Shown: positions 1 to 10,409, counted from the first letter of the stretch. The stretch is 35,466 bases of DNA from a virus (IMGVR_UViG_2711768053_000015), one strand, 5' to 3'. The notes: generated by a model not told the origin, from the sequence alone. Numbers and translations: made by a program.

Positions 1-318
1 ATGAAAAAGATAGCTGCTATATCATTAATTAGTATTTTTATTATGTCTGGTTGTGCTGTGCATAATGATGAGACAAGTATCGGTAAATTTGGTCTTGCAT
101 ATAAAAGTAATATTCAGCGTAAACTCGATAACCAATACTACACCGAAGCCGAAGCTTCTTTAGCCAGGGGCAGAATATCTGGTGCAGAAAATATAGTAAA
201 AAATGATGCAGCCCATTTCTGTGTTACTCAGGGCAAAAAAATGCAGATAGTTGACCTGAAGACAGAAGGTGCAGGATTACATGGCGTCGCTCGTCTGACA
301 TTCAAATGTGGAGAGTGA
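1..318 (+). CDS. yegR: Small host lipoprotein (signal peptide plus lipobox MSGC); 105 aa matches E. coli YegR in length and locus
   Basis: ORF track 1..318; N-terminal hydrophobic signal ending in Cys; sits outside attL on the host side; neighbourhood yegQ-cyaR agrees with the K-12 yegQ-cyaR-ogrK-yegZ-yegR locus (recalled). Confidence 0.55.
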   Translation: MKKIAAISLISIFIMSGCAVHNDETSIGKFGLAYKSNIQRKLDNQYYTEAEASLARGRISGAENIVKNDAAHFCVTQGKKMQIVDLKTEGAGLHGVARLTFKCGE

Positions 319-380
319 GAATATTTTTTGGTAAGCGTCAAACATGCGCGTTCTGGTTGTGCTTAGCCGGAACCTGTGCG

Positions 381-413
381 AGCACGATGCCGTTACGTGA
401 AAGGCATCGTGCT
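381..413. repeat. Perfect 11-bp inverted repeat (agcacgatgcc / ggcatcgtgct) with an 11-nt loop, no U-tract
   Basis: Read directly: 381..391 pairs with 403..413. Lies between the lipoprotein gene and attL; possible protein-binding site or non-canonical terminator. Confidence 0.5.
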
Positions 414-476
414 ATGAAGGGAGATTCTATCGATGTGGTCAATGGAAGACGGTGACCAGGGATAGGGCTTATGCAT

Positions 477-503
477 AAAAAATAAGCCCGTGTAAGGGAG
501 ATT
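477..503. repeat. attL: attL core, 27-bp direct repeat aaaaaataagcccgtgtaagggagatt
   Basis: Identical 27-mer recurs at 33934..33960; the integrase gene is immediately adjacent. Confidence 0.85.
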
Positions 504-582
504 TAGGGTGTCACCAGTAGGGGCTTTCAACGGTACAATGCGGGTTTGAGCGGCATAAATTACCACTGAAAGCCCTTAAACG

Positions 583-1596
583 TTACTCTACTGTGGACAC
601 TGTGTGGACACTCTCGGCCTCAGTACCACCTCTTAGCGGATTAAGAGAAATGGCGTCCTGAAGGTACTCTGGCGCAAAATGAGCGTAAACCATAGTTTGC
701 TCAATCCGCGTGTGACCTAGTATCCGTTGTAGCGTGATAATACTTCCTCCATTAATCATGAAATGAGTGGCAAAGCTGTGCCTTAGTGCATGTGTGGCTT
801 GCCCCGTGGGCAAATCCGGTTTTATTGCTTTCATTGTTCGTCTGAAGCGAGGGTAATCAGCATCAGGGAATAAAAAACCTCGTTTGTTATCCGCGATCAT
901 TTTGGCAACAGCCTCTGAGATCGGGACGGTGCGTGGTTTGTTTGTTTTCGTTTTAACAAACGTGACGCGGTTATGGATGATATTTTCTGCTTTCAAACGA
1001 GCTGCTTCTCCCCAACGTGCTCCTGTACTCAGGCAAAGAATCGCAATCTTTTTATTGTCGCCGTCAAGTGCTGCAAGCAGTAAGGCAATTTCTTCCTGTG
1101 TGAGATAGCCTGTTTCTGGTTTTTCCTCCTTAAGCCTCTTTGTCCCTCTGATAGGGTGCTCACCAAAGAATAACTCCGCTTCAATCAGGGCTGTAAACAT
1201 GCCGCTAATACATGTTAAATCACGATTGATACTCGAAGGTTTAATACCCTGACTTCTTCGGGTGGCGCAGTACTGGCTGATAAGGGATTTCGTGATTTGA
1301 AATGCGCATGGGTCATTCGTTATTTTTGTGAAGATTTCAATTTTTCCAAGATTAGATTTCCCATGCTCTTCGTGTTTACCCTTTAAATCCCACCAGATCT
1401 GTGTCAGTTCCGACAGACGTCGTTTGTCTGTTGGTTTTGATAGCCATTCTTTATTGTGGTGGTTGTACAACGTGTATTTTTCGAAAGCGACAGCTTCGCT
1501 TTTCTTATCAAACTTCCTACGGATGCGTTTTCCGTTACGTCCAGTAGGGCGGATGTCCACTTCATATCGACCATCATCGAGTTTTTTGATTGCCAT
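583..1596 (-). CDS. int: Tyrosine site-specific integrase (P2 Int-like, 337 aa)
   Basis: ORF track; C-terminal catalytic residues in HALRHSFATH...LGH...VYAHF context (R-H-R-Y family); adjacent to attL; length equals P2 Int. Confidence 0.95.
   Translation of the reverse strand: MAIKKLDDGRYEVDIRPTGRNGKRIRRKFDKKSEAVAFEKYTLYNHHNKEWLSKPTDKRRLSELTQIWWDLKGKHEEHGKSNLGKIEIFTKITNDPCAFQITKSLISQYCATRRSQGIKPSSINRDLTCISGMFTALIEAELFFGEHPIRGTKRLKEEKPETGYLTQEEIALLLAALDGDNKKIAILCLSTGARWGEAARLKAENIIHNRVTFVKTKTNKPRTVPISEAVAKMIADNKRGFLFPDADYPRFRRTMKAIKPDLPTGQATHALRHSFATHFMINGGSIITLQRILGHTRIEQTMVYAHFAPEYLQDAISLNPLRGGTEAESVHTVSTVE
592..610. promoter_or_regulatory. Two direct TGTGGACA repeats, candidate arm-type Int binding sites of the P' arm
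   Basis: TGTGGACA at 592..599 and 603..610, 11-bp periodicity, inside the 3' end of int next to the core. A similar pair lies near attR at 33875..33893. Confidence 0.5.
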
Positions 1597-1711
1597 CAGA
1601 AAACCCTCCGAGTGGTACTTTTTTTTGCTACTACTAATCGCTTTTTTCGTGGTGGCTGAAATTTAGCCACCAATAGTAGGCACTTGTGATGAATATATTC
1701 ACGATAAATTG

Positions 1712-2011
1712 TTAACCAGTCTTTTGACCGGAGTGGGGCGACGTTGTTTCGTTTTGCCCAAAGTGTGCGAGAGCGGGCGCAATTTGCCCGGCTTCTGGAG
1801 CTACCTGATCAGTCATGAACCACAAAGTATATTTAGTAAATCTAGGATGTTGTAAGACCTTCATTATGGCTTCAACTCCAGCGTTTTTTGACCGGCTCTC
1901 ATAGCTCGAAAGTGAGCTGTAGGCTACACCAGTTAATTCACTGAATTCTTTACGGTTTAACCTTTCAGATTCACGGATTAGCTTCAACTTCTCCGAAACG
2001 TCTATTGACAT
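1712..2011 (-). CDS. C: Immunity repressor C (99 aa; start moved to the internal ATG at 2011)
   Basis: C-terminal half matches the recalled P2 C repressor (FTKYTLWFM...APALAHFGQNETTSPHSGQKTG); GGAG Shine-Dalgarno 5 nt upstream of the ATG at 2011; the longer track ORF from 2083 lacks an RBS. Confidence 0.85.
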   Translation of the reverse strand: MSIDVSEKLKLIRESERLNRKEFSELTGVAYSSLSSYESRSKNAGVEAIMKVLQHPRFTKYTLWFMTDQVAPEAGQIAPALAHFGQNETTSPHSGQKTG

Positions 2012-2033
2012 AATTACTCCGATTGCGTAATTT
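2005..2033 (+). promoter_or_regulatory. Sigma70-like promoter TTGACA-17 bp-TAATTT pointing toward cox (candidate Pe)
   Basis: -35 TTGACA at 2005..2010 and -10 TAATTT at 2028..2033; overlaps the C start codon, consistent with face-to-face Pe/Pc arrangement in P2-like phages. Confidence 0.4.
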
Positions 2034-2088
2034 CTTGCTGATGGTGTGAAATGTTTTGCTTCTGGAGTTATCCTTTTAGGCAATAATT

Positions 2089-2107
2089 AGCCATTAGGAG
2101 CCATTAG
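2089..2107. promoter_or_regulatory. Direct repeats AGCCATTAG x2 (plus a degenerate third copy at 2111..2117) in the C-cox switch region; candidate operator
   Basis: AGCCATTAG at 2089..2097 and 2099..2107, one helical turn apart, between C and cox. Confidence 0.3.
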
Positions 2108-2132
2108 AAGCACTAAGGGAGAATCGTAGCAG

Positions 2133-2408
2133 ATGAATAGACAGCTTGTAAGCGTGACTGATGCCGTGCCTTATCAGGAGTTTGCAAAACTCATTGGTAA
2201 AACTCCAAGAGCTGTAAGGGGCATGATTGAGAAAGGGAAATTACCAGTTATTGAGATTACTGACCCTCAGTCAGTATCGGGGCGTGCTGGTGAATATTGG
2301 GTATACCTTCCGGCATGGAATAACGGACTAAAACTGGCTTATGAAAGCCGTCCTAAAGAGATTCGTGACGGCTGGTTGATGTGGTTAGGTCTCGGTGAAC
2401 CACGTTAA
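2133..2408 (+). CDS. cox: Cox excisionase / transcriptional switch protein (91 aa)
   Basis: ORF track; GRAGEYWVYLPAWNNGLKLAYESRPKEIRDGWLMWLGLGEPR matches recalled P2 Cox; GGGAG RBS upstream; first gene of the early operon. Confidence 0.93.
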   Translation: MNRQLVSVTDAVPYQEFAKLIGKTPRAVRGMIEKGKLPVIEITDPQSVSGRAGEYWVYLPAWNNGLKLAYESRPKEIRDGWLMWLGLGEPR

Positions 2409-2418
2409 GGAGAACCGT

Positions 2419-2589
2419 ATGAATGAGCCTCGTTGTATTGCTCAGTTATTGCGTAACGAAAGCCCCAGGGCGATTGACTTCACAATCACCCACGGTAAGG
2501 GGCGTAAGGGAATCATTATCCGCACCAAAAAACAGAGTCCGTTAAAAAAGGCTCTGACCTTTCTGAAAAGCCGGAGGGTCTGGAAATGA
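2419..2589 (+). CDS. Small early protein, orf78-like (start taken at the internal ATG after an AAGGAG RBS)
   Basis: ORF track 2395..2589; AAGGAG at 2406..2411 precedes the ATG at 2419; position between cox and B. Confidence 0.5.
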   Translation: MNEPRCIAQLLRNESPRAIDFTITHGKGRKGIIIRTKKQSPLKKALTFLKSRRVWK

Positions 2590-3086
2590 CAGTGATGACG
2601 CTCAATCTCGTTGAAAAACAGCCAGCAGCTATGCGCCGGATAATTGGTAAGCATCTGGCCGTCCCTCGCTGGCAGGAGACATGCGATTATTATAATCAGA
2701 TGATGGAACGCGAACGGCTAACGGTTTGCTTCCATGCGCAGTTAAAACAGCGTCACGCAACGATGCGTTTTGAAGAAATGAACGACGTCGAACGTGAACG
2801 GCTGGTTTGTGCAATTGATGAATTGCGTGGGGCATTCTCAAAACGCCGTCAGGTTGGCGCAAGTGAGTATGCATATATTAGTTTTTTAACAGTCAGTCAG
2901 CGTCGTACTTTATTTATGCATGCCGGATTGACTGAAAAAGAATTCAACCAGCCATACTGGCAAATTAATGAAGAATCATGTTACTGGCGTGATGCTTTAT
3001 TCCGTGCATTACGTGAATTATTCAGCCTGTTTGAGTATGCACCGACAATTCTGACGTCGGTAAAACCAGAGCAATATCTGCATTAA
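2586..3086 (+). CDS. B: Replication protein B (166 aa, helicase-loader-like)
   Basis: ORF track; length and position match P2 B; start overlaps the preceding stop (ATGA). Confidence 0.9.
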   Translation: MTVMTLNLVEKQPAAMRRIIGKHLAVPRWQETCDYYNQMMERERLTVCFHAQLKQRHATMRFEEMNDVERERLVCAIDELRGAFSKRRQVGASEYAYISFLTVSQRRTLFMHAGLTEKEFNQPYWQINEESCYWRDALFRALRELFSLFEYAPTILTSVKPEQYLH

Positions 3087-3149
3087 GTAATTAACCAGCG
3101 TTTTTAACGCACTTAATTGTGCGGGGCTTCTTTTTGCCTGGAGAAAGTC

Positions 3150-3374
3150 ATGCATACAGTTTCTGAAAATCAGTGCGGTAAATACGCATTACTGCTGCAA
3201 CAGGCCAGAACCGAAGCACAGGCCGACGCGGCGACGCGCTTTTCTTCTCATCTTGACGCCATGATTCGCCACATCACAAAGGCGGAGTTATCCCGCGTGG
3301 AGATAGTCGAGCTGCTCAGTCAGGAGTCGGAAAAATTTCACAATATCGGATTGTCTCGCGGGGAGGTACTTTGA
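3150..3374 (+). CDS. Small early protein, orf80-like
   Basis: ORF track 3117..3374; GGAGA RBS before the ATG at 3150. Confidence 0.5.
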
Positions 3375-3673
3375 TGTCCTGTTCTCATTCAGTTGTATTA
3401 CTGAATAACGCCTTAAAAATCGCCGTTATGAAAAATGGCGATTTGTCTCTTATTCAACTTTGTCTTGATAAAGAAAAACGCGACATCACTGAATCTATTA
3501 TCGCGATTTATCAGAATGAATTAAACCTCCTGTCTGATGTGGTCAATTTACTTGTTAAACGCGCTGTATTCCACAAGCAAATTTCCTCAGTGGATGAACT
3601 GACAAAATTAACGACAGAACTTGCCAGTTATTGCGCTGATGTATCCAGGAAACTTAACGATAAAAGGAGCTGA
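3374..3673 (+). CDS. Small early protein, orf81-like
   Basis: ORF track 3371..3673 begins at TTG; the ATG at 3374 is preceded by GGGAGG at 3361..3366. Confidence 0.55.
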   Translation: MSCSHSVVLLNNALKIAVMKNGDLSLIQLCLDKEKRDITESIIAIYQNELNLLSDVVNLLVKRAVFHKQISSVDELTKLTTELASYCADVSRKLNDKRS

Positions 3674-3675
3674 TA

Positions 3676-3900
3676 ATGCCGGACAACGTAGATTTTATTC
3701 AGGAACAACAGGCTGAATTACTGGAGCGCCAGATTAACGCGGCAAGGGTAAAACATTGCGGTGCTTCTGCGCTGGTTTGCGAAGAGTGTGACGCGCCAAT
3801 ACCTGCTGCCCGTCGTGCGGCTTATCCGTCAGCCACGCGTTGTGTTTCCTGTCAGTCAGTCTTTGAAGCAAAAAACAAACATTACCGGAGAACGGCATGA
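3676..3900 (+). CDS. TraR/DksA-family C4 zinc-finger protein (orf82-like)
   Basis: CEEC...x17...CVSC four-cysteine motif; AAGGAG RBS at 3664..3669. Confidence 0.7.
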   Translation: MPDNVDFIQEQQAELLERQINAARVKHCGASALVCEECDAPIPAARRAAYPSATRCVSCQSVFEAKNKHYRRTA

Positions 3901-4172
3901 GTATTCGTATTGAAATTGGCGAACGTTATGTCGTTACCAGTGACAGCTTCCAGTTTATTCTCCACGAGAAAAAGAGAGCGGAAAGCGGTAAAAACGCCGG
4001 TCAGGAATGGCTGGCGGTGGTTGGTTATTACCCGAAATTAAGCCAGCTTGTTTCCGGCCTGATGCATCACGATATTCTGACCGGAAGCGCAAAGTCTTTT
4101 GCTGATTTAAACGCGCAGGTTGAGCAACTCAGCAGGCGTTGTTCAGAGGCTTTTGGCTCATATGGCCGTTAA
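3897..4172 (+). CDS. Small early protein, orf83-like
   Basis: ORF track; ATGA overlap with the preceding gene. Confidence 0.55.
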   Translation: MSIRIEIGERYVVTSDSFQFILHEKKRAESGKNAGQEWLAVVGYYPKLSQLVSGLMHHDILTGSAKSFADLNAQVEQLSRRCSEAFGSYGR

Positions 4173-6225
4173 AGCCTCCGGGCGTTTTGTCCCTCCGTCA
4201 GCATTTGCTGCAGGCACCGGTAAGGCGTTTACCGGTGCTTATGCATGGAACGCGCCACGCGAGGCCGTCGGGCGCGAAAGACCCCTTACACGTGACGAGA
4301 TGCGTCAGGTGCAAGGTGTTTTATCCACGATTAACCGCCTGCCTTACTTTTTGCGCTCGCTGTTTACTTCACGCTATGACTACATCCGGCGCAATAAAAG
4401 CCCGGTGCACGGGTTTTATTTCCTCACATCCACTTTTCAGCGTCGTTTATGGCCGCGCATTGAGCGCGTGAATCAGCGCCATGAAATGAACACCGACGCG
4501 TCGTTGCTGTTTCTGGCAGAGCGTGACCATTATGCGCGTCTGCCGGGGATGAATGATAAGGAGCTGAAAAAGTTTGCCGCCCGTATCTCATCGCAGCTTT
4601 TCATGATGTATGAGGAACTCTGCGATGCCTGGGTGGATGCGCATGGCGAAAAAGAATCGCTGTTTACGGATGAGGCGCAGGCTCACCTCTATGGTCATGT
4701 TGCTGGCGCTGCACGTGCTTTCAATATTTCCCCGCTCTACTGGAAAAAATACCGTAAAGGACAGATGACCACGAGGCAGGCATATTCTGCCATTGCCCGC
4801 CTGTTTAACGATGAGTGGTGGATTAGTCAGCTTAAAGGCCAGCGTATGCGCTGGCATGAGGCGTTACTGATTGCTGTCGGGGAGGTCAATAAAGACCGTT
4901 CACCTTATGCCAGTAAACATGCCATTCGTGATGTGCGTGCGCGCCGCCAGGCAAATCTGGAATTTCTTAAATCGTGTAACCTTGAAAACAGGGAAACCGG
5001 CGAGCGCATCGACCTTATCAGTAAGGTGATGGGCAGTATTTCTAATCCTGAAATTCGCCGGATGGAGCTGATGAACACCATTGCCGGTATTGAGCGTTAC
5101 GCCGCCGCAGAGGGTGATGTGGGGATGTTTATCACGCTGACCGCGCCGTCAAAGTATCACCCGACTCGTCAGGTCAGAAAAGGCGAAAGTAAAACCGTTC
5201 AGCTTAATCACGGCTGGAACGATGAGGCATTTAATCCAAAGGATGCGCAGCGTTATCTCTGCCGCATCTGGAGCCTGATGCGCACGGCATTCAAGGATAA
5301 TGATTTACAGGTCTACGGTTTGCGTGTCGTCGAGCCACACCACGACGGAACGCCGCACTGGCATATGATGCTTTTTTGTAATCCACGCCAGCGTAACCAG
5401 ATTATCGAAATCATGCGTCGCTATGCGCTCAAAGAGGATGGTGACGAAAGAGGAGCCGCGCGAAACCGTTTTCAGGTAAAGCACCTTAACCGGGGCGGTG
5501 CTGCGGGATATATCGCGAAATACATTTCAAAAAATATCGACGGCTATGCACTGGATGGTCAGCTCGATAATGATACCGGCAGACCGCTGAAAGATACTGC
5601 CGCGGCTGTTACCGCATGGGCGTCAACGTGGCGCATCCCGCAATTTAAAACGGTTGGTCTGCCGACAATGGGGGCTTACCGTGAACTACGCAAATTGCCT
5701 CGCGGCGTCAGCATTGCTGATGAGTTTGACGAGCGCGTCGAGGCTGCACGCGCCGCTGCAGACAGTGGTGATTTTGCGTTGTATATCAGCGCGCAGGGCG
5801 GGGCAAATGTCCCGCGCGATTGTCAGACTGTCAGGGTCGCCCGTAGCCCGTCGGATGACGTTAACGAGTACGAGGAAGAAGTCGAGAGAGTGGTCGGCAT
5901 TTACGCGCCGCATCTCGGCGCGCGTCATATTCATATCACCAGAACCACGGACTGGCGCATTGTGCCGAAAGTGCCGGTCGTTGAGCCTTTGACTTTAAAA
6001 AGCGGCATCGCCGCGCCTCGGAGTCCTGTCAATAACTGTGGAAAGCTCACTGGTGGTGATACTTCGTTACCGGCTCCCACACCTTCTGAGCACGCCGCAG
6101 CAGTGCTTAATCTGGTTGATGACGGTGTTATCGAATGGAGTGACCCAGAGGTCGTCAGAGTGTTTAGAAACACATTAAAGCATTATTTGCCAATGTTTAC
6201 TCGGCAAGAGAAGATAAGTGGCTAG
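4162..6225 (+). CDS. A: Replication initiation protein A (rolling-circle nickase); start taken at MAVKASG
   Basis: ORF track 4120..6225; strong match to recalled P2 gpA including HxH-type motif VEPHHDGTPHWHMMLF and the active-site region GYIAKYISKN; start at 4162 overlaps the orf83 stop. Confidence 0.92.
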   Translation: MAVKASGRFVPPSAFAAGTGKAFTGAYAWNAPREAVGRERPLTRDEMRQVQGVLSTINRLPYFLRSLFTSRYDYIRRNKSPVHGFYFLTSTFQRRLWPRIERVNQRHEMNTDASLLFLAERDHYARLPGMNDKELKKFAARISSQLFMMYEELCDAWVDAHGEKESLFTDEAQAHLYGHVAGAARAFNISPLYWKKYRKGQMTTRQAYSAIARLFNDEWWISQLKGQRMRWHEALLIAVGEVNKDRSPYASKHAIRDVRARRQANLEFLKSCNLENRETGERIDLISKVMGSISNPEIRRMELMNTIAGIERYAAAEGDVGMFITLTAPSKYHPTRQVRKGESKTVQLNHGWNDEAFNPKDAQRYLCRIWSLMRTAFKDNDLQVYGLRVVEPHHDGTPHWHMMLFCNPRQRNQIIEIMRRYALKEDGDERGAARNRFQVKHLNRGGAAGYIAKYISKNIDGYALDGQLDNDTGRPLKDTAAAVTAWASTWRIPQFKTVGLPTMGAYRELRKLPRGVSIADEFDERVEAARAAADSGDFALYISAQGGANVPRDCQTVRVARSPSDDVNEYEEEVERVVGIYAPHLGARHIHITRTTDWRIVPKVPVVEPLTLKSGIAAPRSPVNNCGKLTGGDTSLPAPTPSEHAAAVLNLVDDGVIEWSDPEVVRVFRNTLKHYLPMFTRQEKISG

Positions 6226-6439
6226 CTGATATAATTGCATAGGATTACATTGTTCGTTTGGATGGTCGGAGCTTGGAGAGAGTAACTGTCGTTCACTTGC
6301 TTTGAGTTTTTCAAAATGACCATCAGCAGCAAATTGGGAACTTCAGGGGGCTGGAGCGTGGCTATTAATCATCCGAAAAATCACTTTCTCACATTAAGGG
6401 ATTGTTAGTTTGATTCAACTTTTAAAGCAACTATGGCTT

Positions 6440-6467
6440 TAGACAATGACTGATGTCATGATAGAAT
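6440..6467 (+). promoter_or_regulatory. Candidate sigma70 promoter for the methyltransferase (TAGACA-16 bp-TAGAAT)
   Basis: -35-like TAGACA at 6440..6445 and -10 TAGAAT at 6462..6467, about 40 nt upstream of the MTase start. Confidence 0.35.
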
Positions 6468-6507
6468 ACATGATCGTTAGTTGAATCTTTAGCATGGTTA
6501 TTTGAAT

Positions 6508-7659
6508 ATGAATGTAGTTGATTTATTCTCTGGAGTTGGCGGTTTAAGCTTAGGGGCAACTCGAGCCGGTTTCAACTTGGTTGGAGCTGTTGAACTGGAT
6601 AAACATGCTATTTTTTCACATGAGTTAAACTTCCCAAAATCAACACATTTGCATCGGGATGTCTGCTCGCTTACAGCAAAAGATATTTTGTCTGCATGTG
6701 CTGTAAAGGACATTGATTGCGTTATTGGTGGTCCACCTTGCCAAGGATTTAGCACCATTGGAAAAAGGAATGCCAATGATACAAGAAATGAATTGTATAT
6801 TCATTTTTTTAGGTTGGTAAGTGAGTTATCTCCAATTTGTTTTTTGGCAGAGAATGTTCCAGGAATTATGGGTGAGAAATATAATCCAGTAAGAGAAGAA
6901 GCATTTTCTTTAGTTAGAGATGGCTATTGTTTATTACATCCAATAAGGGTTAATGCTTCAAATTATGGAGCACCTACGACACGGACACGAATATTTTTCA
7001 TGGGTTTTAAAAGAGGTTTTATTAATCAGTTAAAAGAATCTGATTTTTTTCCTAAAAATATAATAGAGCAGACTCTTGTCAAAGATGCACTCTACGGATT
7101 ACCGCGAACTATAAGAAAAGAGTGGCAGACAGAGGAGCAAGGCTGGCGTTCAGTAAAAATGGATAAAGATGGTTACTATTATGAGCGACTTTGGGGACAT
7201 ATACCAAATGGTGTAGGTGATGCAGAATCCATTCAAAATTTAAAGAAAGGATTGGTATCTGGCTTTTTAGGTACAGCTCATTCGGAGGAAGTGCTCAGGA
7301 GATATAGACAACTTTCATTCGGTGAAACTGATAAGATTTCGAGATCACAACGACTCAATCCTAACGGTTTTTGTCCAACTTTGAGAGCAGGTACAGGAAG
7401 TGACAAGGGGAGTTATCAGGCCGTTAGGCCAATTCACCCTACTCAAGCTAGGGTGATAACTCCTCGTGAAGCAGCTAGGTTACAAGGGTTTCCTGATTGG
7501 TTCCGTTTTCATCCTACAAAGTGGCACAGTTTTAGACAGATAGGTAATAGCGTTAGTCCGCTTGTGGCTGAGGCTATGCTATTACCTTTATACGATTACT
7601 GTTTAAAAGTTAAAAAAGAATCTTTGAATACCATGGAACGACCTTGTAGTATTCGATAA
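6508..7659 (+). CDS. DNA cytosine-5 methyltransferase (Dcm/M.HhaI-type fold)
   Basis: Canonical C5-MTase motifs in order: FSGVGG (motif I), GGPPCQGFS (motif IV, catalytic Cys), ENVPG (motif VI), QIGNSVSP (motif X). Track ORF starts at a TTG at 6502; first ATG is 6508. Confidence 0.9.
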   Translation: MNVVDLFSGVGGLSLGATRAGFNLVGAVELDKHAIFSHELNFPKSTHLHRDVCSLTAKDILSACAVKDIDCVIGGPPCQGFSTIGKRNANDTRNELYIHFFRLVSELSPICFLAENVPGIMGEKYNPVREEAFSLVRDGYCLLHPIRVNASNYGAPTTRTRIFFMGFKRGFINQLKESDFFPKNIIEQTLVKDALYGLPRTIRKEWQTEEQGWRSVKMDKDGYYYERLWGHIPNGVGDAESIQNLKKGLVSGFLGTAHSEEVLRRYRQLSFGETDKISRSQRLNPNGFCPTLRAGTGSDKGSYQAVRPIHPTQARVITPREAARLQGFPDWFRFHPTKWHSFRQIGNSVSPLVAEAMLLPLYDYCLKVKKESLNTMERPCSIR

Positions 7660-8602
7660 AATTACTTAGATCGGAGTTGGCTCCAGAAGGAGTGGAGCCA
7701 ATGTAAAACCCTAGAGTTTCATGGATGTTTTCTACTGAAGCTTCGGGTAATAAAGATTCAATATGTATCCTTTCTTTTAAAGACATAGCAGGGACGTTTA
7801 TATTTTTAGGATTACTCCACTTCCCATCATAAAATGGCCAATTCTTGATTCTGGAATTATCAATAAATTTAGCTTCTTCTGTATCAGTGTTTTCAAGAAC
7901 GATAGCTGTTAAAGTAACCATCTGTTGGCCATCTTTATAAACGAAAGAAGTTAATGGATGTATTCTTATGTCATTTCGACCTTTTAATCCATGCCCTATT
8001 GCGCGTCTCATAGCATTAACTAGGAGCATAGGGTATTTTTTAAATCCGACATCTTCGACTACTGCATTCGGTGGTAAAAAATCTTGAGTCAAAATATCGT
8101 TTATCTTTTGAAATCTATATGCTCTTGGATCTCGTTCGCTCGGGTTTTTTCCCAAGGCTTCAGGGTTTGCATTTAAAGTGATCTTAAAAATGTCTTTGGG
8201 TTTTAGCTTTGTAACCAAATTAACTATTTCATTTAACTGAGCATTTAAGTCTGAAGGCGTTGCATAATCTAACCATATGATCGTTTTATCGTCAAAGTTA
8301 TAGCGATTGATGAAGTCTCCGCTCATTTCTGGGGTATCACCCAAATTTATGCAAGATAATGGTTTGTTAAACTGTTGTCGGCAATGGACATTTTTATCTC
8401 CTTCGATAGATATCATTTTAGTCACTTTTAACAAATTATGAATTTGTTTGAAATCTTCGAGGAAAGGCCCCCCGAATCCTATATATACATATTCGGATAT
8501 GTTTGTATAATTGTTTAACCTTCTTAGGGATTCTATAAATAGATTCCTTTCAATGGCTTTGTTTTGCCGCAAATGATATGGGATGCTTCCGCCAGTACTC
8601 AT
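7610..8602 (-). CDS. Hypothetical 330-aa protein, downstream partner of the GHKL ATPase; function unknown
   Basis: ORF track; start ATG overlaps the ATPase stop (ATGA at 8599..8602); AT-rich; no nuclease or helicase motif recognised by eye; glycine-rich segment YVYIGFGGPF. Confidence 0.6.
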   Translation of the reverse strand: MSTGGSIPYHLRQNKAIERNLFIESLRRLNNYTNISEYVYIGFGGPFLEDFKQIHNLLKVTKMISIEGDKNVHCRQQFNKPLSCINLGDTPEMSGDFINRYNFDDKTIIWLDYATPSDLNAQLNEIVNLVTKLKPKDIFKITLNANPEALGKNPSERDPRAYRFQKINDILTQDFLPPNAVVEDVGFKKYPMLLVNAMRRAIGHGLKGRNDIRIHPLTSFVYKDGQQMVTLTAIVLENTDTEEAKFIDNSRIKNWPFYDGKWSNPKNINVPAMSLKERIHIESLLPEASVENIHETLGFYIGSTPSGANSDLSNFIEYYKVVPWYSKILF

Positions 8603-10023
8603 TGTTTAGCCTTTTTTAGAAATTCATCAAAACAATATTGACCAACCTCTGTTGGTGGTTGAGTTGCATCATCAAAGAGAAACTCTGACACCAGTTTTAT
8701 TTCACTATGTCTACGGCTAAATTTTATCTGACGTAATGGATCCGAATCCCGAGGCATTGGTAGCTTCGGTTTGAAAACTTCTCCTCCTATTGAACGTCGA
8801 ACGTTCGACCAGTTTTCTCTAGGAATTGATTTAGTAAAGTCGACCTCAGTTGTTGAAACCATATTGGATGCAGTATTAATAATTTGCTTTCTTTCCTCTG
8901 CGTTACTTTTCCATTTGTTGGTAAAGTCCGTGAAGAATTTTAAACCCTCGCGCATAAAATCTTTAGTAGAAAGATATAGCTCAGAGTTACCATCAACACC
9001 TCGTTTAGTTGTAGTGATAGGTAGTAATTCAGCATTTGATGATGTGAAAATAACAACACCAGAAATTCCGATGAATTGAGTATGATATTGTGGAACTCCA
9101 GCTTCTCCCCAACCTGTAAGCTTGGTTTTATCCGCATGTAGGACTACACGATCATTGCATATAATTGTCCAACCAGCTTTTTCTGTTGTGGAACGGCCTG
9201 ATAATAAATTCTCTTCTTCTTCCTCACTAGGCAAGTTACGATAAAATCCAACTGCAACTTTAATTGAAACTCCATTTGAATTATTTTTATATACATAAGG
9301 AGCAATGCCGTCGGTATTGCCTTTAATGGCTTCTTCATCAAATATTAAATTGGTGCTATTTGGCTTAACAATACATCCATTTACTTTAACCTCAAACCCT
9401 TTTTTAATGATTAAACTATAATGATTTGCTATGATATTAATCAAAACTTCTTCAAAGCCACGATCCTTTGATAGGGATGCTTTAATATCTTTCCTTAAAT
9501 TGTTAATTTGGATGCTGACGCCTGTTTCGTTTAAGTCAACATTATTTCGCTCTAACTCCAAAGACCAGTTTTCATCATCAGCCATCCATTCAGGAGAAAT
9601 GGTAACTGAAAATTGTTCGTTTTCAGTTTTGCTTAAAATCTGAGCAGATGTCCCCATTTTGAAAATCGCTCGTTTCATTCCGATACCATATACACCAATT
9701 GTCGGGAGATCATCCGCCTCACGTTCTGCAGGTCTACCCAACCTAAACGCATAGCTTTCCGCAAGTTTTGCTGGAATACCTCCGCAATTATCAGTTATTC
9801 TGAAACTATTCTCATCAAATTCAATATGAGCATAGTAACCCTTGTAAACGTCTGATTTACCGAAGGTTTGCTCTGGAGTGAAATTGTTTTTTCTTAATAC
9901 ACCATCTAGGCAGTTATCTAGTAAATCTAGAATTGAGTCAGACAACTCAATATCTCGGGTGAGCATCTCAACAAAGAATCTTTTTGCTGGAAATGCTGCT
10001 ATTTTGACGTTTGACGAAACCAT
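8599..10023 (-). CDS. GHKL-superfamily ATPase (histidine-kinase/MutL/MORC-like Bergerat fold), 474 aa
   Basis: N-box-like LLDNCLDG, G1 box DNCGGI, G2 box GVYGIGMKRAIF in the expected order and spacing; AAGGA RBS 6 nt upstream of the ATG at 10023. Confidence 0.75.
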   Translation of the reverse strand: MVSSNVKIAAFPAKRFFVEMLTRDIELSDSILDLLDNCLDGVLRKNNFTPEQTFGKSDVYKGYYAHIEFDENSFRITDNCGGIPAKLAESYAFRLGRPAEREADDLPTIGVYGIGMKRAIFKMGTSAQILSKTENEQFSVTISPEWMADDENWSLELERNNVDLNETGVSIQINNLRKDIKASLSKDRGFEEVLINIIANHYSLIIKKGFEVKVNGCIVKPNSTNLIFDEEAIKGNTDGIAPYVYKNNSNGVSIKVAVGFYRNLPSEEEEENLLSGRSTTEKAGWTIICNDRVVLHADKTKLTGWGEAGVPQYHTQFIGISGVVIFTSSNAELLPITTTKRGVDGNSELYLSTKDFMREGLKFFTDFTNKWKSNAEERKQIINTASNMVSTTEVDFTKSIPRENWSNVRRSIGGEVFKPKLPMPRDSDPLRQIKFSRRHSEIKLVSEFLFDDATQPPTEVGQYCFDEFLKKAKQ

Positions 10024-10089
10024 AAATTATCCTTTTTCGAACAGTAATTTTCGCATTCATGCATAATGGCTGTGAACGAAGATTCGTCT

Positions 10090-10118
10090 TGATTAGGCGT
10101 GCATGATTTTGCATACAA
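10090..10118 (-). promoter_or_regulatory. Candidate promoter for the ATPase operon (minus strand TTGTAT-17 bp-TAATCA) overlapping an inverted repeat CATACA-aaa-TGTATG
   Basis: Minus-strand -35 at 10113..10118 and -10 at 10090..10095; palindrome at 10112..10126. Confidence 0.3.
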
Positions 10119-10221
10119 AATGTATGAAAAAAAAAGCTGCCTGTCTATGACTGATAGCCGTCTAGTTACTTGGTTTTCAAGACAAATGCGACTGCATCAA
10201 AACCGTCTCATGAAGCGGGCG

Positions 10222-10240
10222 GGCGAGGCGGGGAAAGCAC
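10222..10240. other. cos: cos site: 19-nt sequence GGCGAGGCGGGGAAAGCAC matching the recalled P2 cohesive end
   Basis: Exact 19-mer present in the GC-rich segment between cargo 1 and Q, where P2 cos lies. Confidence 0.55.
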
Positions 10241-10382
10241 TGCGCGCTGGCGGCGGTGCTGATTTTATTTTTTCAGCGTCTGAGCGCGTTGTGATGGCGT
10301 TTAGATTGTTCGCCGGGGCGTTGGTGTGTATGCGGGCTGTTTTGTGCGGTGGTGAGCGTGTGAGGGCGTGATGGCGGGGTGT

Positions 10383-10404
10383 AAAAAAGCCGCCCACAGG
10401 CGGC
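10383..10404 (-). terminator. Rho-independent terminator after Q (minus strand)
   Basis: GCCGCC-caca-GGCGGC hairpin (10389..10404) followed on the minus strand by six U (10383..10388), just past the Q stop. Confidence 0.75.
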
Positions 10405-10409
10405 GATGT

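Follow-up and report, generated by a model that had tools for sequence, protein, structure and literature searches.

The 35,466-nucleotide viral stretch IMGVR_UViG_2711768053_000015, analyzed at its full length and called the window here, is a P2-like prophage of Escherichia coli whose integration site lies next to yegR and yegS. Its cargo segment of ~4 kb, with a GC content of 34–40% versus 51–60% in the flanks, carries a cassette of three genes: a MORC-family GHKL ATPase, a methyltransferase-fold partner, and a DNA cytosine methylase (Dcm).

6226..10409: cargo segment of low GC content, occupying the P2 hotspot that lies between genes A (replication) and Q (portal)
6508..7659, plus strand: DNA (cytosine-5) methyltransferase (Dcm) of a dedicated subfamily, convergent with the ATPase–partner pair; RefSeq start at 6508
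7610..8602, minus strand: Methyltransf_35 (PF20553) partner gene, 330 amino acids, class I S-adenosylmethionine (SAM)-methyltransferase fold
8599..10023, minus strand: MORC-family GHKL+S5 ATPase gene, 474 amino acids; WP_029401227, labeled "ATP-binding protein"

The ATPase gene had been singled out by an earlier note as a GHKL ATPase with intact Bergerat-fold motifs. The interval it gave, 8599–10023, is filled exactly by one open reading frame (ORF), with the correction that the gene lies on the minus strand, running from an ATG at 10023–10021 to a stop at 8601–8599; plus-strand translation of the same interval meets stops throughout, and that frame is closed. A profile search returns Pfam HATPase_c_3 (PF13589) over residues 30–159 (E = 2.6e-8; 34.4 bits, above the cut-off of 25). 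The protein has more than 3,400 homologues of equal length and shows the Bergerat alpha/beta sandwich fold. Its domains and motifs are arranged as follows:

9409..9990, minus strand: Bergerat (GHKL) ATP-binding domain, about residues 12–205, with a conserved N-terminal strap PAKRFFVEMLTRDIEL
9901..9939, minus strand: N-box, residues 29–41, DSILDLLDNCLDG; LLDNCLDG is 34–41, N37 binds Mg, and D33 replaces the usual catalytic Glu
9775..9792, minus strand: G1 box DNCGGI, residues 78–83
9661..9696, minus strand: G2 box and end of the ATP lid, GVYGIGMKRAIF, residues 110–121
8986..9408, minus strand: S5-fold transducer domain, about residues 206–346
9142..9174, minus strand: MORC signature GhXhhpXXRhl, here GWTIICNDRVV, residues 284–294, a beta-hairpin in the model
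8998..9015, minus strand: TTTKRG loop, residues 337–342
8602..8985, minus strand: conserved C-terminal extension, residues 347–474, containing one long helix, the motif GGxx[FY]KPxLPxP, and a pair of helices at the end

Bounds of the GHKL domain were set from the Pfam match, the secondary structure of the model, and invariant columns, with invariance scored throughout in 44 family sequences at ~50% identity. The three motifs that the note had listed—LLDNCLDG, DNCGGI, and GVYGIGMKRAIF—are all present and in canonical order. Invariant residues comprise D33, D36, N37, D40, and G41 in the N-box; D78, N79, C80, G81, and G82 in the G1 box; and G110, Y112, G113, I114, G115, M116, K117, and R118 in the G2 box. 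Lid residues 109–112 have a predicted local distance difference test (pLDDT) score below 50 in the model, in line with a mobile lid. The description "intact" holds for the presence and order of these motifs, but not strictly for their form. MutL, GyrB, Hsp90, and MORCs place a catalytic Glu four residues ahead of the Mg-binding Asn; the window ATPase has Asp (D33) at this general-base position, invariant in its clade, and the D-L-L-D-N pattern is common to the sister clades. Glu to Asp is a conservative change.

For the ~300 residues that it left unassigned, the note had suggested an S5-like transducer or, alternatively, a nuclease domain. The transducer was located at about residues 206–346, giving the ATPase the S5-fold second domain by which GHL proteins contribute a conserved basic residue to the ATP site. 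Because GHL ATPases present a lysine finger at this place, K340 in the TTTKRG loop, where T337, T338, T339, K340, R341, and G342 are all invariant, is the probable S5 "lysine finger" for the ATP gamma-phosphate. Local alignment pairs this loop with the THNKQ loop of MORC3, a pairing that is not statistically significant. The nuclease was not found: Pfam scans of residues 236–369 and 346–474 at E values up to 10 gave nothing meaningful, an NCBIfam search of the last 240 residues for a nuclease or any further domain returned noise only, and the C-terminal extension holds no known domain and no catalytic-type invariant residue by Pfam, model, or invariant columns.

The S5 domain carries the motif GhXhhpXXRhl, the defining signature of the MORC family (Iyer, Abhiman & Aravind 2008, PMC2292703). 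It occupies the same position in 44/44 family members and arises in 73 of 20,000 shuffles of the ATPase (0.37%). In structural comparison, MORC proteins appear to rank ahead of MutL (15.7); ATPase domains of type II topoisomerases and Hsp90 paralogues score ~13–15, and histidine kinases at most 6.3. A PDB profile search with the ATPase reached MORC3 at E = 0.33 only, hhalign produced no alignment to a verified S5 fragment of MORC3, and the Smith–Waterman score against that fragment was not above shuffles. MORC membership is not proved by sequence statistics alone, and we therefore use the family name on the combined basis of signature motif and structure.

The partner gene starts within the ATPase stop, overlapping it by 4 nucleotides (ATGA), an arrangement from which the two are probably translationally coupled. 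The protein has a conserved core (motif I GFGGP, E67, and D112-Y/F) and combines the Rossmann-like fold, Gly-rich motif I, acidic residue after strand 2, and motif IV Asp of class I SAM methyltransferases. Its top structural neighbors are the rRNA and tRNA methyltransferases RsmD, Trm1, RlmO, and TrmN. Among the 150 best cluster representatives of 1,975 matches, almost all partners are ~330 amino acids long, and no long form with a fused architecture was found.

The Dcm, whose catalytic Cys lies in a GPPCQ motif, matches PF00145 (E = 1.7e-59), TIGR00675, and PADLOC MTase_II (E = 5e-100), and as a C5 methylase it supplies the cognate methyltransferase that a Type II restriction–modification (R-M) system requires. 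Its convergent placement relative to the pair resembles the layout of R-M systems. The 3′ ends of the Dcm and partner genes also overlap by 50 bp (7610–7659). Transcription of one gene could interfere with that of the other; R-M systems are commonly laid out in this way.

In a scan of one genome per species, relatives were found in 224 species, spread over Proteobacteria, Cyanobacteria, Firmicutes, Chloroflexi, Planctomycetes, Nitrospirae, and candidate phyla. Neighborhoods were counted within ~5 kb at the best 80 species-level loci. The ATPase family (80/80 loci) is accompanied by Methyltransf_35 at 76/80, by Dcm at 68/80, and by Vsr at 29/80; no other family recurs. ATPase and partner share the 4-nucleotide stop/start overlap at 44 loci. 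Dcm lies upstream on the same strand at 29 loci and downstream and convergent, as in the window, at 25. The linked Dcm proteins form one coherent subfamily, averaging 47% identity between pairs, and their target-recognition regions average 45% identity to that of the window enzyme. This coherence, together with the gene linkage, indicates that the three genes travel as a unit, probably with conserved specificity. The note's reading of the gene is supported, with effector or sensor as a predicted role; the coupled methyltransferase-fold partner and the recurrence of the pair in DISARM operons go beyond what it reported.

Exceptions to the three-gene arrangement are of several kinds. At 8 or 9 cyanobacterial loci (among them L021, L025, L029, L030, L033, L034, L036, and L038), the pair occurs without an adjacent methylase and amid housekeeping genes. 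This suggests that the cyanobacterial pair is either vertically kept and "domesticated" or dependent on an unlinked methylase. A substitute methylase class was considered for these loci and rejected, the neighbors being NADH dehydrogenase, glycosidase, kinase-WD40, and ABC genes; at several of the loci, the pair adjoins ndhF-like genes. Two Leptolyngbya loci (L037, 9559–10899; L061, 9459–10757) carry the ATPase with a longer Dcm (432–446 amino acids) immediately after it and no Methyltransf_35, and locus L091 has the ATPase alone. As natural variants, these could reveal whether the system can do without the partner.

In ~10% of loci (L010–L013, 11591–13357; L102, 13743–15719; L016, L017, L023, L024, L028, L043, and L048), though not in the window, Dcm has beside it an additional GHKL protein of larger size (570–660 amino acids). 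The Asticcacaulis version matches the PADLOC Type II restriction enzyme family REase_II (E = 2.9e-92), and its ExxxN box is canonical. Such neighbors indicate that a cassette-type Dcm can serve a bona fide GHKL–nuclease restriction enzyme. The C terminus of the Salmonella version resembles PD-Lambda-5_A.

The cassette is mobile. It occurs at an identity of at least 99% in 46/5,426 complete E. coli genomes, and Rousset 2022 (supplementary file 6) lists its three protein accessions jointly among the contents of the P2 hotspot, without giving the cassette a name. Elsewhere, cassettes ride as Tn7 cargo (Aeromonas), in an integrative and conjugative element (Salmonella), in an integrase island (Burkholderia), and in the filamentous phage PfAC20. 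No near-identical cassette DNA was found among sequenced phages, where the only homologue found is the 36%-identical one of this Pf phage. ATPase and partner both belong to PHROG families of unknown function. Pseudomonas phage PfAC20 (PP058144.1) encodes ATPase, Methyltransf_35 partner, and C5 methylase as ORF1–3 (280–3711), and a second, short "DNA cytosine methyltransferase" as ORF9 (5438–6082).

In a sister clade, the pair is built into a known defense system, class 1 DISARM. This clade shares 36% identity with the window protein, and its members are 68–92% identical to one another. In a Microvirga plasmid, Ferribacterium, Burkholderia, and Cupriavidus, the pair sits between DrmMI and DrmA (Microvirga terrae plasmid NZ_CP102847.1, 88.7–106.7 kb, loci L097/L099; also L100, L101, L103, and L104). 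In metagenomic loci L105–L184, DISARM genes surround the pair at 68/80, and the full one-strand order Dcm–Vsr–DrmD–DrmMI–ATPase–partner–DrmA–DrmB–DrmC is present at 17 or more; stand-alone quartets account for 10 long metagenomic loci. A variable gene can sit between DrmD and DrmMI in the nine-gene order. Class 1 DISARM is sometimes accompanied by a 5-methylcytosine (5mC) methylase (Aparicio-Maldonado 2021, bioRxiv 10.1101/2021.12.28.474362). Neither a GHKL/HATPase protein nor a Methyltransf_35-like protein in DISARM was found in the literature searched. This embedding firmly sets the pair in a methylation-based defense context.

We read the ATPase, its Methyltransf_35 partner, and the Dcm as a methylation-linked defense module with the ATPase–partner pair as its ATP-driven sensor or effector, and we put this at about an even chance. 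Resident DNA would be marked by the dedicated C5 methylase. The MORC-type protein would bind ATP, dimerize through its N-terminal strap, and close as a clamp on DNA, by analogy with other GHL ATPases. In a putative complex, ATPase and partner, the latter a base-flipping reader or a second methylase, would act on DNA without the cassette mark, forming the sensor or effector of an R-M-like defense. The pair alone might trap the invader, compact it, or pass it to host nucleases; in the sister clade, it might be an add-on to DISARM. The damaging step may be entrapment or compaction of the DNA, its transfer to host nucleases, an additional modification, or DISARM activation. An earlier prediction was that R-M operons use their MORC and paraMORC ATPases to manipulate DNA superstructure upon methylation (Iyer 2008, PMC2292703).

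Several observations count against a defense module of this kind. No nuclease domain is visible in ATPase or partner, and no nuclease, helicase, or other effector is kept beside the pair across the 80 loci of the window clade; the restriction endonuclease of a Type II R-M system is thereby missing from the pair and its conserved neighbors. The methylase-free cyanobacterial pair is awkward for strict R-M logic. As its methyltransferase core appears intact, the partner could modify rather than restrict. With Asp in place of Glu as general base, ATP turnover may be slow. ATPase and partner match no family of PADLOC-DB v2 (v2.0.0) at E ≤ 0.1 in either clade, Mza and the other catalogued systems with GHKL parts included, and no experimental work on the cassette was found in the literature searched.

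One alternative is a cassette that only modifies DNA. The ATPase would load or move the partner, a second nucleic-acid methyltransferase, on DNA; there would be no restriction arm, and together with Dcm the pair would lay down an epigenetic coat that shields the carrier element from host restriction, or serve epigenetic regulation. Consistent with this are the partner's seemingly complete SAM-methyltransferase core with base-modifying RNA/DNA methyltransferases as its top structural matches, the lack of a nuclease in the pair and its conserved neighbors, carriage on mobile elements that gain from self-protection, and the cyanobacterial tolerance of a pair without a linked methylase. We regard it as unlikely, although the most serious of the competing accounts; even in that case, the cassette would establish a novel methyltransferase pair dependent on ATP.

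In a bolder form, the defense module would be an immune system that works without a nuclease. The partner would guide the MORC ATPase to DNA lacking the cassette 5mC, which the ATPase would topologically trap and compact or silence, and the same pair would be the missing sensor or accessory module of the nine-gene class 1 DISARM form. We hold this to be doubtful. Were it true, the cassette would be a direct prokaryotic counterpart, possibly an antecedent, of eukaryotic MORC-dependent methylation-linked silencing, and the nine-gene form would have its missing module.

MutL, working with Vsr and Dcm, is likewise a GHKL+S5 ATPase coupled to a C5 methylase and Vsr, and a MutL-like helper has been weighed: ATPase and Vsr would repair T:G mismatches arising from deaminated Dcm 5mC and so limit the mutagenic cost of methylation. 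Vsr is missing at 51/80 loci, the window among them, and the window ATPase, unlike MutL, has no C-terminal dimerization/endonuclease domain. MORC proteins appear to match better than MutL, the cyanobacterial pair occurs without any adjacent Dcm, and the linked methyltransferase-fold partner would be left without a role. Such a helper is very unlikely.

Slightly less credible still is an abortive-infection toxin pair, in which the ATPase would sense infection, methylation of an essential host RNA (rRNA or tRNA) or protein by the partner would halt growth, and Dcm would be no more than a passenger or regulator. RNA-directed enzymes (RsmD, Trm1, RlmO, and TrmN) as the partner's nearest structures, the absent nuclease, and the position in a phage-defense hotspot would suit it. 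The co-inherited, dedicated Dcm with its conserved target-recognition region and Vsr linkage points instead to a DNA-centered function, and there is no sign of toxicity.

Least probable of all is a guard of the methylation pathway, a conjecture with no output domain in view, in which the partner would report SAM depletion or phage inhibition of methylases and the ATPase would trigger a response, DISARM in the sister clade and some host factors in the window clade, even if the pair does keep company with methylases (Dcm or DrmMI) rather than nucleases and D33 suggests a slow, switch-like ATPase.

The methylation-linked defense module, which remains our preferred interpretation, is comparable to the prokaryotic MORC and paraMORC1–5 loci (PMC2292703): like them, the cassette combines GHKL and S5 domains, sporadic distribution, lateral mobility, linkage to cytosine methylase and Vsr, and the MORC signature. 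About 70% of published MORC neighborhoods include a superfamily II helicase, the rest consisting of the ATPase with methylases or restriction enzymes, and paraMORC3–5 have a C-terminal restriction-endonuclease (RE)-fold, TIR, or HxH domain fused (PMC2292703). The cassette differs in having neither a helicase nor a fused effector domain, and the Methyltransf_35 partner is not named in the text of that study. Eukaryotic MORC2, MORC3, and SMCHD1 share 15–17% identity with the window ATPase, a pairwise similarity that is not significant. In contrast to them, the window ATPase lacks CW, coiled-coil, and hinge domains, has its own 128-residue C-terminal extension, uses Asp for the catalytic Glu, and comes with an obligate methyltransferase-fold partner.

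VcSduA, a type I-D Shedu protein of the paraMORC3 group that has been proven to act against phages and is predicted to form an entwined dimer (Adams et al. 2025, PMC12137116), resembles the window ATPase in its N-terminal GHKL domain with motifs I–IV. It is a single protein with catalytic Glu E27 and a C-terminal PD-(D/E)xK nuclease (DUF4263), whereas the window ATPase has no nuclease, carries Asp at the Glu position, and has partner and methylase alongside; the C-terminal RE-fold DUF4263 domain that marks paraMORC3/Shedu type I-D is missing from it. Class 1 DISARM (Ofir 2018; Aparicio-Maldonado 2021) is a methylation-based defense, as the cassette would be, and sister-clade pairs are interleaved with DISARM genes, but DrmA, DrmB (DUF1998), DrmC (PLD), DrmD, and DrmMI are absent from the window. 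In the Serratia DISARM study, six genes were transplanted, and neither an ATPase nor an O-methyltransferase is mentioned (bioRxiv 10.1101/2021.12.28.474362). The "Kinase-methylase" candidate tested by Rousset 2022 was considered as a possible earlier sighting and set aside, since it is a Vibrio GHKL protein distinct from the one here.

Animals and plants rely centrally on MORC ATPases to silence transposons and for methylation-linked compaction of chromatin. The literature searched yielded no experimental work on bacterial MORCs, and no main text naming PF20553/Methyltransf_35 or the three WP accessions. A description of the three-gene Methyltransf_35 form without helicase or nuclease, or of the nine-gene DISARM form, is not found in the searchable literature. 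Compact, native to E. coli, and free of any recognizable nuclease or helicase, the cassette offers a tractable setting for MORC action on DNA and for the reading of cytosine methylation.

Several minor features of the window accompany the cassette. A consensus scan gave candidate promoters for the ATPase–partner pair and for Dcm; over 10047..10147, the total count is no higher than in shuffles.

10076–10047, minus strand: candidate ATPase–partner promoter, TTCACA-18-GAAAAT with TG
10147–10119, minus strand: candidate ATPase–partner promoter, TAGACA-17-TACATT
6440..6467, plus strand: candidate Dcm promoter, TAGACA-16-TAGAAT with TG, from the consensus scan only

Upstream of the tail sheath gene (27230–28420), ORFs of 304 amino acids (25187–26101, plus strand) and 191 amino acids (26250–26825, minus strand) apparently lie at a second P2 cargo hotspot; both are blank in Pfam and PADLOC and are maybe another uncharacterized cargo. 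The P2 gene A ORF (4120–6225, plus strand; 701 codons) is a RefSeq pseudogene, annotated "missing C-terminus," and ends at the start of the low-GC cargo. Gene A may have been truncated by insertion of the cassette, leaving the prophage replication-defective.

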